From IMG/VR virus record IMGVR_UViG_3300010370_000051, positions 1-53,985 of that record: a stretch of DNA of 53,985 bases; one strand, given 5' to 3'. Below the pieces are notes generated by a model. That model saw nothing but the letters and a program-made list of their open reading frames with translations, searched no databases and was not told the origin of the DNA. Both the position numbers and the translations under genes were made by a program. Shown in pieces: positions 31,030 through 53,985 of the stretch (position 1 is its first letter; each line of letters begins with the position of its first letter). This DNA is from a virus (Duplodnaviria > Caudoviricetes).

Positions 31030-31650
31030 ATGACAACAACAAAACAAAAAAAGACAGCAACAAGTACACAAGCAAAGGTAGTTCAGGCAAAGAAACCTGC
31101 CCCTGCTCCAGTTGTAGATAATCTTCCAAACAATCCTTTCATTTTTGAAGTATTGGATCTTGTTTCGCGTCAAAGGTCTAATGCTAAAAAAGTAGAAGTT
31201 CTTAAAAAGTACGAAGACCTTTCACTTAAAGCAATTTTGATTTGGAACTTTGATGAGACTGTAATTTCAATGCTTCCCGATGGAGAAGTACCATACTCTG
31301 CATTTGAAGATCAGACTGTAAGTAATGGTAATCTCTCTACAAAAATTACTAATGAAGTTCGTAGAATGCACGAAACTGGATCCTTCTCTCTAGGTTCTAG
31401 TGATAAGCAAGGTCATACAACAATTCGTAAAGAATATAAAAACTTTTATCATTTCATCAAAGGTGGTAATGATGGATTGAATAATATTCGTAGAGAATCG
31501 ATGTTTATTAATTTGCTCCAAGGTCTTCATCCACTTGAGGCAGAAATTATTTGTCTTGTGAAAGATAAAAAACTCACAGATAAGTATAAGTTGACTAAAG
31601 AAATTGTTTCCGAAGCTTACCCTGACATCACTTGGGGAGGACGTTCGTGA
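31030..31650 (+). CDS. Conserved T4-like cyanophage hypothetical protein
   Basis: LIWNFD..LPDGEVPY...RRESMFINLLQGLHP.EA. Confidence 0.85.
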   Translation: MTTTKQKKTATSTQAKVVQAKKPAPAPVVDNLPNNPFIFEVLDLVSRQRSNAKKVEVLKKYEDLSLKAILIWNFDETVISMLPDGEVPYSAFEDQTVSNGNLSTKITNEVRRMHETGSFSLGSSDKQGHTTIRKEYKNFYHFIKGGNDGLNNIRRESMFINLLQGLHPLEAEIICLVKDKKLTDKYKLTKEIVSEAYPDITWGGRS

Positions 31651-31985
31651 GTCAAGTTGTTGATAAAGTACAAAAAAATCATATGGACCACTGGACATCA
31701 TCAGAAAAAGAAACTTGTAAATCACGCTACGGTTGTGAGATTATGATTGAAAATGGTTCGTATACAGATGTTCGTACTAAAGATGCACCTAATGACGCTT
31801 ATATCATTCAATATGTTGTGGATGATAAACTCTGCTATGACTTAACTAGGGGTTCTAGAGTAAAATTGTTTGATATGTATTGGGATAAGTTTCGTGAAAA
31901 TCTTAAAAGCATTGAGTTTGGATATGGTAGAGTTAATCCAAAACTCTGGGGTTATAAGACACCAGAAAAGAAAAAGCGAAAGTGA
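31647..31985 (+). CDS. Cyanophage hypothetical protein
   Basis: GTGA overlap; FDMYWDK...GYGRVNPKLWG. Confidence 0.8.
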   Translation: MSQVVDKVQKNHMDHWTSSEKETCKSRYGCEIMIENGSYTDVRTKDAPNDAYIIQYVVDDKLCYDLTRGSRVKLFDMYWDKFRENLKSIEFGYGRVNPKLWGYKTPEKKKRK

Positions 31986-32061: not shown

Positions 32062-32109
32062 CACAAAACTCCCTAAATACCAGTGAATAGAGGTATAATA
32101 GTCCTCTAA

Positions 32110-32361
32110 CGTTCATCCTATGACTAAGGCACTTTTGCTCTTGGCATGGGTTCCACTTCTTTCTATTTCTACGCCCCAACTTGCTGAAACCAATAAAGTT
32201 GCAATAAGTTGTGACGCAGCGTGGGAACTAATGGACATTGTTAAAAACGACAATGTAGTAGATCAAAGAAGAGAAGACCGACTGCTATTAGAACTCCGAA
32301 AGGATGTTGTGAGACTTAAGTGCTAAAACTGAATAGGACGGAAGTAAGCCGACTCGGAACG
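32110..32361 (+). promoter_or_regulatory. Glutamine riboswitch-like aptamer 1 (glnA type) with ORF-containing P2 loop
   Basis: CGTTCA-TCCTAT...ATAGGA-CGGAAGTAAG-CCGACTC-GGAACG; P1 CGTTC/GAACG. Confidence 0.75.
32120..32326 (+). CDS. 68-aa protein with signal-peptide-like N-terminus, nested in aptamer 1
   Basis: ATG inside P2 5' strand; two Cys (C31 and terminal C68). Confidence 0.7.
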   Translation: MTKALLLLAWVPLLSISTPQLAETNKVAISCDAAWELMDIVKNDNVVDQRREDRLLLELRKDVVRLKC

Positions 32362-32364
32362 GAT

Positions 32365-32533
32365 CGTTCATCTATGGAAGCACTCATTTTAACTTGCTTA
32401 CAAGCACAGTTAATTGCTGGTAGAGTTCATAAACAAGAACTATCGCCGCAAGCGAAGAATGATTTAATTTGGGAGATTAAACAAGTCTCACCAAAAGAGT
32501 GTAAAATAGACGCAAAAGCCGACTGAAGGAACG
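32365..32533 (+). promoter_or_regulatory. Glutamine riboswitch-like aptamer 2 with ORF-containing P2 loop
   Basis: CGTTCA-TCTAT...ATAGA-CGCAAAAGCCGACTGAAGGAACG. Confidence 0.75.
32374..32526 (+). CDS. 50-aa two-Cys protein nested in aptamer 2
   Basis: MEALILTCLQAQ...SPKECKIDAKAD; the stop lies in the aptamer TGAAG motif. Confidence 0.65.
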   Translation: MEALILTCLQAQLIAGRVHKQELSPQAKNDLIWEIKQVSPKECKIDAKAD

Positions 32534-32566
32534 CTCTTTAACCTAAACCATTAAGGAGAAAACCTA

Positions 32567-32704
32567 ATGTCTAAAGTAGTATATCGAGGCGTTGAATACG
32601 ATACGCAAAAGCGTTTAGAGTATCAACAGCAGATGATGCAACAACCTCAACAATACAACGAAACCTATCGTGGTGTTAAGTTTGTAAAGGAGGGGCACAA
32701 ATGA
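32567..32704 (+). CDS. DUF4278-family peptide
   Basis: MSKVVYRGVEY...QQQMMQQPQQ...TYRGVKF (two YRGV motifs); RBS taaggag. Confidence 0.85.
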   Translation: MSKVVYRGVEYDTQKRLEYQQQMMQQPQQYNETYRGVKFVKEGHK

Positions 32705-32802
32705 ACACTTACTTCGTTCGTTACCTCAAGAAAAAGGCAAAGAAGGAACAACTCCTTCACAATGCACAACTGAATATGGCAAAGCAACCACAAGTTGCTT
32801 GA
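32701..32802 (+). CDS. 33-aa basic peptide
   Basis: MNTYFVRYLKKKAKKEQLLHNAQLNMAKQPQVA; RBS aaggagg, ATGA coupling. Confidence 0.7.
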   Translation: MNTYFVRYLKKKAKKEQLLHNAQLNMAKQPQVA

Positions 32803-32806
32803 AGTA

Positions 32807-32834
32807 AAGGAGGGGTTGATCCCCTCCTTTTTTT
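32807..32834 (+). terminator. Rho-independent terminator
   Basis: aaggagggg-ttgat-cccctcctt + T run. Confidence 0.9.
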
Positions 32835-32865
32835 ATGTTATGATATCTTCAGTGAAAAGTATTCT

Positions 32866-33039: not shown

Positions 33040-33199
33040 TAGAGCAAGAAAATTGATTAAGTTGCTTGAGAAACTTGTAAAGCAAGAGCACCTTTATACT
33101 GAAGAAAAAATCATAGAAATGAAACAACAACTGCGAGCATTAAAAGAAGAACTCGCACAACTGGAAGCAAAAACATCAAAAGGATTTGGAAAGAAATGA
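33032..33199 (+). CDS. Cyanophage hypothetical coiled-coil protein (55 aa)
   Basis: MTSRARKLIKLLE...SKGFGKK; ATGA-coupled to thyX. Confidence 0.8.
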   Translation: MTSRARKLIKLLEKLVKQEHLYTEEKIIEMKQQLRALKEELAQLEAKTSKGFGKK

Positions 33200-33846
33200 C
33201 TGTAAAACTTATTTCGGTAACTCCCGATGCAGAAAAAACAATGGCGTTTATTGCGCGAGTTAGTAACCCTGCGAATCAAGACAACGAAAACTATGCCAAG
33301 TTGCTTGCTTATTGTATTAAGCATAATCATTGGTCTGTGTTTGAGCAGTCTTCTATGACGCTTGAGATTGAGACGACTCGTGGTATTGCGGCACAGATTC
33401 TGAGGCACCGCAGTTTCACATTCCAAGAGTTTTCTCAACGGTATGCAGATAGTTCTTTGATTTCTGAATATATTCCCGTTCCCGATCTTCGCCGTCAAGA
33501 CACTAAAAATCGTCAGAACTCGATTGATGATATTGGTGAGTATGAGAAACTCGGTCTTCAGAGTAAAATTCAAGAGCATTTTGCACACTCTATGAACCTC
33601 TACAAAGAACTTCTTGCTCACGGGGTGGCAAAGGAGTGTGCTCGGTTTGTACTGCCCTTAGCGACCCCTACGCGCATTTATATGACGGGTTCTTGCCGTT
33701 CGTGGATAACCTACATTGCTCTCCGTGAAAAGTCAGGAACTCAGCGGGAGCATATGGATATCGCAAAAGCGTGTAAAGCAGTTTTTGCTGAACAGTTTCC
33801 AATTTGTTATGAAGCACTTGGTGGTGAAGCAGAGTGGGTTATCTAA
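33196..33846 (+). CDS. thyX: Flavin-dependent thymidylate synthase
   Basis: HWSVFE, RHRSFTFQEFSQRY, AKECARFVLP. Confidence 0.97.
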   Translation: MTVKLISVTPDAEKTMAFIARVSNPANQDNENYAKLLAYCIKHNHWSVFEQSSMTLEIETTRGIAAQILRHRSFTFQEFSQRYADSSLISEYIPVPDLRRQDTKNRQNSIDDIGEYEKLGLQSKIQEHFAHSMNLYKELLAHGVAKECARFVLPLATPTRIYMTGSCRSWITYIALREKSGTQREHMDIAKACKAVFAEQFPICYEALGGEAEWVI

Positions 33847-34112: not shown

Positions 34113-34157
34113 ACCAGGTTATAATATAAATAGTTATAGCATTCCAACCTAGTTTAT
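34109..34157 (+). promoter_or_regulatory. Start-sequestering hairpin with internal T4 late promoter
   Basis: ataaac-c-aggtt / aacct-a-gtttat arms; TATAAATA at 34125. Confidence 0.7.
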
Positions 34158-34755
34158 GCCTAGACCTTATATAAAACATCCAGAAATAAAAGTTGGAGAT
34201 AAATTTTATTATCTTGAAGTTATATCTCCACCTTTTTATGAAACTTATCCAAGTGGTAAAAAAAGGAAAAAAATTCTGTGTAAATGTATTTGTGGAAAAG
34301 AAAAAGTTTTTAGATACGATAGTTTTGTATGTAAAAACGAATTAGATCGAGCAAAAAGTTGTGGGTGTAAGCATACTTATAGAAATAATTTTAATGCTCA
34401 AAAAAGAAGAAAACCTGAAAGTGTTTATAGATACATTTATGAGCAATATAAATCGGGAGCAAAAACTAGAAATATAGAATTTAATTTATCAAAAGAAGAT
34501 TATCTTGAAATTGTTAAAAAAGATTGTTATTACTGTGGATCCAATCCAGAACTAAAACAACCCCATAGGGGTAAAAATTATTATGTTGGTGTTCCTGTTC
34601 CTTACAATGGAATTGATAGAATAGATAGTAGTGTGGGATACGAAAAAGAAAATTGTGTTCCTTGCTGTAAAAAATGTAATTATATGAAAAGTGATATGAA
34701 TGTTTCTTCATTTATGGAACATATTTTAAAAATAGCAAATCATCAAAAACTCTAA
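34156..34755 (+). CDS. Putative HNH-type homing endonuclease
   Basis: CKCICG...KSCGC; CYYCG...GIDRIDSS.GY...NCVPCCKKCN.MK. Confidence 0.85.
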   Translation: MPRPYIKHPEIKVGDKFYYLEVISPPFYETYPSGKKRKKILCKCICGKEKVFRYDSFVCKNELDRAKSCGCKHTYRNNFNAQKRRKPESVYRYIYEQYKSGAKTRNIEFNLSKEDYLEIVKKDCYYCGSNPELKQPHRGKNYYVGVPVPYNGIDRIDSSVGYEKENCVPCCKKCNYMKSDMNVSSFMEHILKIANHQKL

Positions 34756-53916: not shown

Positions 53917-53985
53917 GGTTCTGTCGCCTATTGGTTAAGGCCGACACCTTATAAGTGTCTGAACGGAGTTCAATTCTCCGCAGAA
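53917..53985 (+). tRNA. tRNA-Ile(UAU), 3'-truncated
   Basis: Acceptor GGTTCTG/CAGAA.., D stem GCCT/AGGC, anticodon stem GACAC-cttataa-GTGTC, T stem CGGAG-ttcaatt-CTCCG. Confidence 0.92.

Follow-up and report, generated by a model that had tools for sequence, protein, structure and literature searches.

The window analysed here, the 53,985 bases of IMG/VR record IMGVR_UViG_3300010370_000051 from a T4-like cyanophage (IMG/VR completeness estimate 25%), carries two adjoining aptamer frames of the glutamine riboswitch type (glnA, RF01739), each of which encloses a complete small protein-coding gene in the loop of its P2 hairpin. The P2 loops are 211 and 130 nucleotides (nt) long, versus about 4 nt in the RF01739 model, and the open reading frames (ORFs) that they hold, ORF1 and ORF2, start within the 5' strand of the closing helix. 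An earlier sequence-only reading of the window had proposed such a gene-in-riboswitch architecture; it is now supported by covariance-model matches, by the existence of alleles with a short P2, by covariation of P2 and by purifying selection on the nested ORFs, and it proves to be widespread, so that we regard it as very probably real. The best explanation of the locus as a whole, which we consider probable, is a double aptamer of the glnA/RF01739 kind in front of an IF17-like gene, with P2 closed over whole small genes and with aptamer folding and translation of these genes excluding each other. All features described below lie on the plus strand.

Detection and layout of the aptamer frames

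Insertion-tolerant covariance models were built from other phages, R1 from 46 aptamers (42 short and 4 ORF-bearing second copies) and R2 from 50 aptamers (46 short and 4 ORF-bearing first copies), with no sequence from the ORF families of the window in either training set. R2 matches positions 32108-32365 at 54.1 bits (E 3.6e-13, model positions 1-49 of 49) and R1 matches positions 32363-32537 over its full length at 49.8 bits (E 5.2e-13), and in these alignments ORF1 and ORF2 are accommodated as P2-loop insertions. Over both strands of the window, the models gave just one further match, of 10.1 bits (E 0.68). Homologs with a short P2 score 35.6, 33.5, 33.3, 28.9, 24.4 and 20.4 bits against RF01739 itself, for which the gathering cut-off is 35 bits; by these alignments, the frames of the window are homologous to short-P2 aptamers that Rfam recognises. 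In phage S-CREM1 both copies are short and annotated ‘glnA’, in S-PM2 both are likewise short, and DSL-LC02 and S-SRM01 combine a short first copy with an ORF-bearing second copy.

Frame 1 (32108-32365), which holds the 5' part of the outer aptamer proposed below, opens with CGTTCA (32110-32115), the CGTTC of which (32110-32114) is the 5' strand of P1 and is invariant in 50/50 aligned aptamers. The P2a 5' strand TCCTAT (32116-32121), which includes the A and T of the ORF1 start codon, can form six base pairs with ATAGGA (32333-32338) on the far side of the 211-nt loop. Junction 1, CGGAAGTAAGCCGACTC (32339-32355), matches the conserved ACGGAAGUA of the family and carries the linchpin G at 32341. 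Copy 1 ends with GGAACG (32356-32361) and copy 2 opens, after the three bases GAT, with CGTTCA (32365-32370), so that the stretch GAACG-GAT-CGTTC (32357-32369) reads as the copy-1 P1 3' strand, a 3-nt spacer and the copy-2 P1 5' strand; its two arms are also able to pair with each other as an inner hairpin. This junction region between the copies is 92-96% identical in many cultured cyanophages.

Frame 2 (32363-32537), which holds the 3' part of the proposed outer aptamer, continues with the P2b 5' strand TCTAT (32371-32375), including the A and T of the ORF2 start codon, and with the P2b 3' strand ATAGA (32506-32510), which pairs with TCTAT in five base pairs after the 130-nt loop. Following ATAGA, copy 2 reads CGCAAAAGCCGACTGAAGGAACG and ends at 32533. 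Junction 2, CGCAAAAGCCGACTGAAG (32511-32528), departs from ACGGAAGUA, carries the GAAG of the family and contains the ORF2 stop TGA (32524-32526); it is followed by the copy-2 P1 3' strand GAACG together with C32534 (32529-32534), and this C covaries with G32341. The 5-bp P1 helix, CGUUC/GAACG, is therefore present twice (32110-32114 with 32357-32361, and 32365-32369 with 32529-32533). It is invariant in 58/58 and 50/50 aligned relatives, and consequently P1 offers no covariation and its pairing partner is ambiguous. The two glnA-type frames of the sequence-only reading were thus recovered position by position, with model matches at E of about 1e-13, as were the ATGs at 32120 and 32374 inside the P2 5' strands, the ORF1 stop 6 nt ahead of the P2 3' strand and the course of ORF2 through the core to the TGA of TGAAG.

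Pairing of P2 across the inserted genes

In an alignment of mixed short and long aptamers, 98.4% of the P1/P2 cells are paired, versus 86.6% after shuffling (0/500 shuffles reach the observed value) and 38-60% in slid controls, and all five P2 pairs show double changes. The corresponding alignment of first copies, short and long, gave 99.6% paired cells versus 85.4% shuffled (0/500). For ORF-bearing copies taken alone, pairs were counted with a register-exact script, as the MAFFT alignment lined up the ATGs and broke the P2 register; among the ORF-bearing second copies, with 16 distinct stems, 95.0% of the cells are paired versus 70.2% shuffled (0/2000). By these counts, the base of P2 in aptamer 2 stays complementary across the ORF, with compensatory changes.

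The helix comprises at least 5 bp in 46/49 unique second copies, with a maximum of 12 bp, and often reaches 7-12 bp into both ends of the ORF. At least two of the three AUG bases face their complement in the P2 register in 23/27 unique first copies and 38/48 unique second copies. In the minimum free energy (MFE) fold of frame 2, P2 forms, as does part of P1, and this fold is more stable than those of shuffled sequences (z = -3.0). In a separate case, the second aptamer of locus L112 (L112:308-385), P2 has grown to about 50 nt by a duplicated AT-rich segment that holds no ORF; thus, the P2 loop also tolerates non-coding growth.

The nested ORFs evolve as proteins

ORF1 (32120-32326) encodes 68 amino acids (aa), with a hydrophobic, signal-peptide-like N-terminus and cysteines at positions 31 and 68, and stops with TAA at 32324-32326. 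ORF2, read from the ATG at 32374 (32374-32526), encodes 50 aa with Cys8 and Cys43; the P2 3' strand and the core of the aptamer supply the codons for its C-terminal IDAKAD, and it ends at the TGA (32524-32526) of TGAAGG, that is, the UGA of UGAAGGAACG. In codon alignments, the median ratio of nonsynonymous to synonymous substitution rates (dN/dS) is 0.34 for the ORF1 family (17 sequences, 136/136 pairs below 1), 0.26 for the ORF2 family (21 sequences, 159/160 pairs below 1) and 0.24 for a class ending in ...IGRK (35/35 usable pairs below 1). Differences by codon position (1/2/3) amount to 1516/1016/2185 and 3283/1630/4446 and are concentrated at position 3, indels are multiples of three, and both other frames are closed by stops in every member. 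The conservation of the nested ORFs as genes, which had been singled out for a dN/dS check, was thereby borne out for both families: on codon-level evidence the nested ORFs are under purifying selection and evolve as proteins.

At least 249 clusters are homologous to ORF1, all of them unnamed. A Pfam scan found no family for either nested ORF, and ORF2 has a weak match to phrog_504 (E 7e-4). Across 50 nested proteins from both aptamer positions, two cysteines are the sole invariant columns, and the arrangement is still found in phages whose nested proteins share less than 20% identity; members of one protein family are found in both aptamer positions (locus L066 with L006, and L111 with L119). 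The AlphaFold2 models place helices at residues 31-43 and 49-66 in ORF1 (predicted local distance difference test score, pLDDT, 72.6) and at 8-20 and 25-37 in ORF2 (pLDDT 82.8), in both cases as a helical hairpin with the cysteines at its two ends. A Foldseek search of the ORF2 model against the PDB returned nothing at E ≤ 1e-3, and the ESM Atlas returned only unnamed clusters, below 0.9. ORF1 and ORF2 thus belong to one two-cysteine helical-hairpin superfamily.

These properties bear directly on the possibility that the inserts are structured RNA expansions and the ORFs accidental. The stability of the frame 2 fold relative to shuffles and the lack of a Pfam family for the nested ORFs would agree with such a reading, but the third-position excess, dN/dS below 1 in nearly every pair, indels in threes and closed alternative frames, together with two invariant cysteines and confident helical-hairpin models, leave it strongly disfavoured.

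The position of the genes within the aptamer is equally regular. The start ATG lies 3-7 nt after CGTTCA in 82/83 ORF-bearing frames, and ORF2-type genes end at the same core triplet in 47/50 cases. That triplet is TGA or TAA in 53/53 ORF-bearing versus 49/59 short second copies (Fisher p 0.0015), so that it seems to be kept because of the presence of the ORF. From this pattern, ORF2 is dual-coded with the aptamer core, ending at a UGA/UAA that overlaps GAAGGAACG.

Distribution and alleles

The 15-nt junction between the copies retrieved at least 120 IMG/VR loci, three of them odd or chance matches, and the locus counts given here rest on this sample, which is not de-replicated. Among 107 fully scored loci, both aptamers are short in 38, a short first copy precedes a long second copy in 38, the reverse holds in 20, and both are long in 11, which gives at least one ORF-bearing aptamer in 69/107. 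Aptamer length is bimodal, with copy 1 measuring either 31-55 or 209-254 nt and copy 2 either 26-60 or 134-237 nt, and an ORF of 49-69 aa is present in 33/33 long first copies and 50/53 long second copies, the window included. Among cultured phages, the covariance models place both frames of P-SSM4 around annotated coding sequences (PSSM4_169.2 and PSSM4_169.3) and one frame of S-SSM7 around SSSM7_289.

Empty alleles were found as well. Locus L093 corresponds to the first copy of the window without its gene (TCCTAT, a 9-nt loop, ATAGGA); one metatranscriptome contig joins 32121 to 32332 through TTAAAATC, and metatranscriptome contigs bridge either ORF with 7-9 other letters. When genome contigs were scanned with the same 15-mer, 119 of the at least 120 matches listed were chance occurrences in unrelated bacteria and one was real, namely a 3.8-kb contig (L205) with an ORF1/ORF2-bearing double aptamer that is binned into a lake Acetobacteraceae metagenome-assembled genome. 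This is probably a phage contig misbinned into a bacterial genome.

Downstream gene and possible expression platform

The gene that follows the aptamers (32567-32704) encodes a 45-aa IF17-like or DUF4278-like protein (VVYRGVEY..., phrog_5049 E 1e-10). The DUF4278 gene expected downstream in the sequence-only reading is thus present as a weak likeness (Pfam PF14105, E 0.0017), but its 19.1 bits remain under the Pfam cut-off of 25.3 bits. A YRGV motif is common to the downstream genes of nearly all related loci. In Synechocystis, expression of IF17, a DUF4278 protein and inactivator of glutamine synthetase, is turned on through the type I glutamine riboswitch of gifB, and the text of that report proposes that the sequence just 3' of the aptamer masks the ribosome binding site until glutamine binds (Klahn 2018, PMC6212724).

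A possible expression platform of this kind lies at 32534-32558, where CTCTTTAA (32534-32541) has its complement in TTAAGGAG (32551-32558), the segment with the Shine-Dalgarno sequence; the predicted duplex energy is -7.4 kcal/mol in the window, and the platforms that start with CTCT lie at -6.9 to -10.6 in 14/14 cases, the window included (among 40 of 60 platforms). Some lineages have a different expression platform, an extra GC-rich hairpin (CACGGATCCCTCG...GAGG or similar) between the second aptamer and the Shine-Dalgarno sequence, as in L064, L079, L030, L037 and L104.

Tandem or interleaved copies

The two frames were described in the sequence-only reading as tandem aptamers. They do stand 3 nt apart, but the split junction, the mismatched local linchpins and covariation between the copies suggest that they are interleaved. 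In the solved structures, as described by Huang 2019, the third linker base after P2 pairs with the base following GGAACG, the pair being G23:C60 in type I riboswitches and C19:G41 in type II. The within-copy linchpins of the window are both mismatched (G32341 with G32362, and C32513 with C32534), and both cross-copy pairs are Watson-Crick. Among 95 unique cores, the pair between linker position 3 of copy 1 and the nucleotide that follows the second GGAACG is G:C in 33 and C:G in 62, without exception. A second, independent sample of loci, drawn with the copy-1 pattern, has C after copy 2 in 104/104 cases and a Watson-Crick cross pair in 104/104, and the 3' neighbour of copy 1 itself is C in 2/107 (G 98, A 3, T 4). 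P3 behaves similarly: between the two bases after the copy-1 GUA and the two before the copy-2 GAAGG it is fully paired in 105/106 (AG:CU 91, GG:CC 8, GG:CU 6), whereas within copy 1 the local P3 pairs in full in 66/106 only.

The conserved motifs are divided in the same manner. The junction ACGGAAGUA is present in copy 1 (32338-32346), and copy 2 has ACGCAAAAG in its place; the 3' element GAAGGAACGC, with the E-loop purines and the linchpin C, is present in copy 2 (32525-32534), and copy 1 has CUCGGAACGG. Likewise, CGGAAGUA occurs in copy 1 only and GAAGGAACGC in copy 2 only. With split motifs, mismatched local linchpins and a poorer local P3, neither copy is complete on its own. The covariation of linchpin and P3 across copies instead suggests interleaving rather than two independent tandem units, with one outer, canonical aptamer (32110-32534) that would enclose a permuted inner copy with the GAACG-GAT-CGTTC hairpin as its P1. 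In such an interleaved fold, the outer aptamer would consist of CGUUC at 32110, P2a and CGGAAGUA, followed, beyond the inner copy, by GAAGGAACG-C ending at 32534.

A stricter version, which we consider possible though short of an even chance, holds that there is one aptamer and not two. The sole sensor would be the outer element, from CGUUC 32110 through P2a and CGGAAGUA to GAAGGAACGC ending at 32534, and the segment from AG 32347-32348 to CU 32523-32524 would be an expanded P3 that takes in the GAACG-GAU-CGUUC hairpin, P2b and ORF2 and has no ligand site of its own. This reading would account for the two conserved junction motifs being split between the copies, for linchpin and P3 covarying across copies and not within them, and for the variable 3' neighbour of copy 1, owing to which the inner C:G linchpin is not strictly kept; in addition, Table 4 of the S-CREM1 paper gives the whole 99-nt tandem as a single glnA match of 44.0 bits. 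However, conservation of the inner CGUUCA, P2b and CGC equals that of the outer elements, P2b covaries strongly, the current Rfam model scores the second copy alone at 33.3-33.5 bits, and the linchpin covariation comprises only about three independent switches.

Proposed coupling of aptamer folding and nested translation

The sequence-only reading suggested that reciprocal, glutamine-dependent expression of the nested and downstream genes might result; the location of the start codons in P2 and the course of ORF2 through the core are the facts that support this proposal. With both start codons in P2 and the end of ORF2 on the 3' strand of P1, the sensor should be unable to fold while the nested genes are being translated, and vice versa. 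A nested AUG would be open to ribosomes only as long as the P2 3' strand, 130-211 nt further on, has yet to be transcribed or is unpaired. Once the ORF is cleared, P2 would close and mask the AUG, and the aptamer could form and bind glutamine. Following the proposal for the gifB ON switch, P1 and the linchpin, when stabilised by the ligand, would pull C32534 and its neighbours out of the CUCUUUAA:UUAAGGAG anti-Shine-Dalgarno helix, allowing the IF17-like gene to be translated. A ribosome terminating at UGA 32524 would cover both the P1 3' strand and the anti-Shine-Dalgarno sequence, and hence translation of ORF2 should reset the sensor and open the downstream start. We judge the chances that folding and nested translation are coupled in this manner to be evenly poised.

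A more specific and more tentative form of the model, which we think less likely to hold, combines coupling with interleaving into a translation-gated riboswitch, in which a single 425-nt outer glutamine aptamer forms only after the nested genes have been transcribed and freed of ribosomes. Each nested start codon would be masked by P2, the very helix that the sensor needs, and each mRNA would give a brief co-transcriptional pulse of two small two-cysteine proteins before becoming a glutamine sensor that controls an IF17-like inhibitor of the host glutamine synthetase. The duplicated CGUUC/GAACG strands would permit exchange between tandem and nested folds, and this exchange would be the switching step.

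Alternatively, the nested genes might be passive cargo. The P2 loops would then be the sole sites in a compact, strongly transcribed early leader that tolerate a small mobile gene; the genes would ride on the promoter, P2 would be kept only for riboswitch function on untranslated molecules, and there would be no reciprocity. The occurrence of all four short/long combinations, of empty alleles with the same stem and of the same protein families in either aptamer position is what gain and loss of cassettes would produce, and the link between glutamine and nested expression in the coupled model is itself a prediction from the layout. Nevertheless, the start codon 3-7 nt from CGTTCA in all but one of the ORF-bearing frames, usually paired in P2, the frequent extension of P2 by 7-12 bp into both ORF ends, and, in ORF2-type genes, a frame and a stop held constant with respect to the core, the stop triplet being preserved only along with the ORF, are more regular than mere tolerance requires. 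We therefore consider passive carriage unlikely, although by no means negligible.

Several observations weigh against the preferred reading, that is, a double glutamine aptamer whose folding alternates with translation of the genes inside it. The intact window gave no RF01739 match in Rfam, either at the gathering cut-off or at E ≤ 10, both frames being missed because the inserts (211 and 130 nt) are so large, an outcome that was to be expected and does not speak against the frames themselves. Neither copy alone has the whole conserved junction, as copy 2 has CGCAAAAG in place of CGGAAGUA and copy 1 lacks GAAG; with the junction motifs split in this way, these variants are putative glutamine sensors. 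The P2 covariation noted in the sequence-only reading, which stands for the mixed alignments and for ORF-bearing second copies, is not significant for ORF-bearing first copies alone (9 stems, 86.7% versus 83.4% paired, with 489/2000 shuffles as high). In the MFE fold of frame 1, P1 is closed but the 5' strand of P2 has a different partner; a helix of 5-6 bp over a loop of 130-211 nt is weak, and ribosome traffic may block P2 in vivo. The linchpin state changes about three times on the flank tree, with 3/3 changes concordant (sign test p 0.25), and with so few independent switches the pattern may reflect linkage by descent. The anti-Shine-Dalgarno pairing is without covariation and, over all platform classes, does not exceed shuffles (p 0.12). 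The nested ORFs are predicted to be translated, and the expression data consist of short Logan metatranscriptome contigs (approximately 32087-32815) that are uninformative on strand, ends and expression and may hold DNA; absence of contigs beyond this range carries no weight.

Some of these points could also indicate a decayed riboswitch, in which the gene insertions inactivated the aptamers and the flanking halves persist only as relics or recombination sites. The failure of Rfam to match the window and the slow folding expected of long loops would fit decay. We nevertheless regard it as very improbable, given that the core is no less conserved in ORF-bearing than in short forms, that P2b of ORF-bearing forms shows compensatory changes, and that the arrangement persists despite the divergence of the nested proteins.

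Relation to known systems

The frames share with the Glutamine-I riboswitch (RF01739, for example the gifB leader) the same P1 CGUUC/GAACG, a P2 that directly follows A6, a G:C linchpin, formed across the copies, and the ACGGAAGUA and GAAGGAACGC motifs, each in one copy, as well as a DUF4278/IF17-like gene downstream and an anti-Shine-Dalgarno sequence directly 3' of the aptamer. They differ from it in that the P2 loops of 130 and 211 nt are protein-coding, the motifs are divided between copies and Rfam yields no match. As in the tandem, ‘pseudo-cooperative’ glutamine doublets described in the main text of a 2022 survey (Sherlock et al. 2022, PMC9481103), two frames stand 3 nt apart in front of one downstream gene, and the short-P2 relatives in S-PM2 and S-CREM1 resemble such doublets; unlike in these doublets, the linchpin and P3 of the family found in the window covary between the copies. 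According to its stated criteria, that survey allowed no intervening ORFs and excluded gaps of more than 300 nt between successive aptamers (Sherlock 2022, PMC9481103), so that ORF-bearing forms fell outside it.

Many first copies also resemble the Glutamine-II riboswitch (RF01704, gathering cut-off 33 bits) in combining a CGC linker with GGAACG-G, that is, a C:G linchpin. The first aptamer of S-PM2 (L245:586-635) scores 24.6 bits against Glutamine-II and 24.4 bits against Glutamine-I, both under the cut-off, RF01704 has no match in the window, and the type II P2/pseudoknot pairing is mismatched in the alignment. To judge by these sequence features, those first copies that have a CGC linker stand between the two types of glutamine riboswitch described so far.

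Group I and group II introns carry protein genes in peripheral loops, where the ORF comes and goes and the closing helix is kept, and they likewise illustrate a functional RNA fold that tolerates a whole ORF in a hairpin loop. However, these introns are ribozymes whose ORFs encode homing endonucleases or maturases that serve the element, whereas here the RNA is an mRNA leader of the metabolite-sensor type and the ORFs are tiny two-cysteine genes with start codons in the closing helix. Leader-peptide attenuators, transfer-messenger RNA and SgrS/SgrT resemble the present arrangement in that translation of a short ORF and RNA structure share nucleotides and can compete; attenuator peptides, however, lack conservation at the protein level, whereas the nested products form conserved protein families and the RNA structure concerned is an aptamer.

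The nesting of whole genes in an aptamer P2 has apparently not been described before. In full-text searches, supplements aside, no mention was found of ORFs inside a glutamine aptamer (including Weinberg 2010, Klahn 2018 and Sherlock 2022), and, within the same limits, none of such nested ORFs was found in the S-CREM1 paper, the Melnitz phage paper and a paper on structural variants. Riboswitch aptamers are usually viewed as compact non-coding domains, and candidates interrupted by an ORF or a long gap are dropped in surveys and in Rfam-based annotation. In the present case, a validated aptamer class has retained its core and its closing helices time and again around entire genes, in cyanophages that are abundant in marine and fresh waters. 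If the fold forms in vivo, this would be a natural mRNA in which coding and ligand sensing take turns on the same nucleotides, and the competition between co-transcriptional folding and translation would be open to direct tests in a phage and its host. To the question of how cyanophages manipulate the nitrogen status of their hosts, it would add a family of at least 249 unnamed clusters of small proteins and the IF17-like gene. With insertion-tolerant models, many riboswitches that annotation currently overlooks should come to light.

Probable transcription unit and neighbouring genes

The region is probably the leader of a short phage transcription unit that runs from a putative -10 box at 32094 to a terminator at 32806, a layout that shares the standing of the overall explanation. 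The possible -10 box, TATAAT (32094-32099), was picked out by reading the sequence and lies about 7-10 nt upstream of the aptamer start; a transcript from it would begin 2-5 nt ahead of the first CGTTCA. A consensus promoter scan listed no promoter at 32094, where the -35 element is poor; at the same position, relatives have TTTACA-N16/17-TATTAT or TAAGAT. A terminator scan identified an intrinsic-terminator-like hairpin of 10 bp (32806-32830) followed by a T run, 32806-32837 in all. Between the 45-aa gene and this hairpin lies a 33-aa ORF (32701-32802; phrog_545, E 0.024) that overlaps the stop of the 45-aa gene (ATGA) and is annotated as a coding sequence in the S-SRM01 homolog.

The Synechococcus phage S-SRM01 is the nearest public relative of the riboswitch region, with 77.9% identity over 76% of 1.6 kb. 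In P-SSM4 (L244, 164.8-166.1 kb), the riboswitch unit is flanked by pstS and talC, both auxiliary metabolic genes of host origin, and in other phages it is found at unrelated sites, adjoining nrdB, speD or regA. These unrelated genomic positions suggest that the unit is a mobile promoter-to-terminator cassette.

Upstream of the unit in the window, an ORF at 31030-31650 matches Pfam DUF6433 (E 8.1e-42) and, together with an ORF at 31632-31985, precedes the riboswitch unit, likewise in S-SRM01. Just downstream, a 216-aa ORF (33196-33846) appears ThyX-like by eye, and its S-SRM01 counterpart is annotated as thymidylate synthase. At 34156-34755 lies a 199-aa cysteine-rich ORF, which, from its pattern by eye, we take to resemble an HNH-type homing endonuclease. 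A tRNA gene (48.3 bits) at 53917-53985 is truncated by the end of the window.

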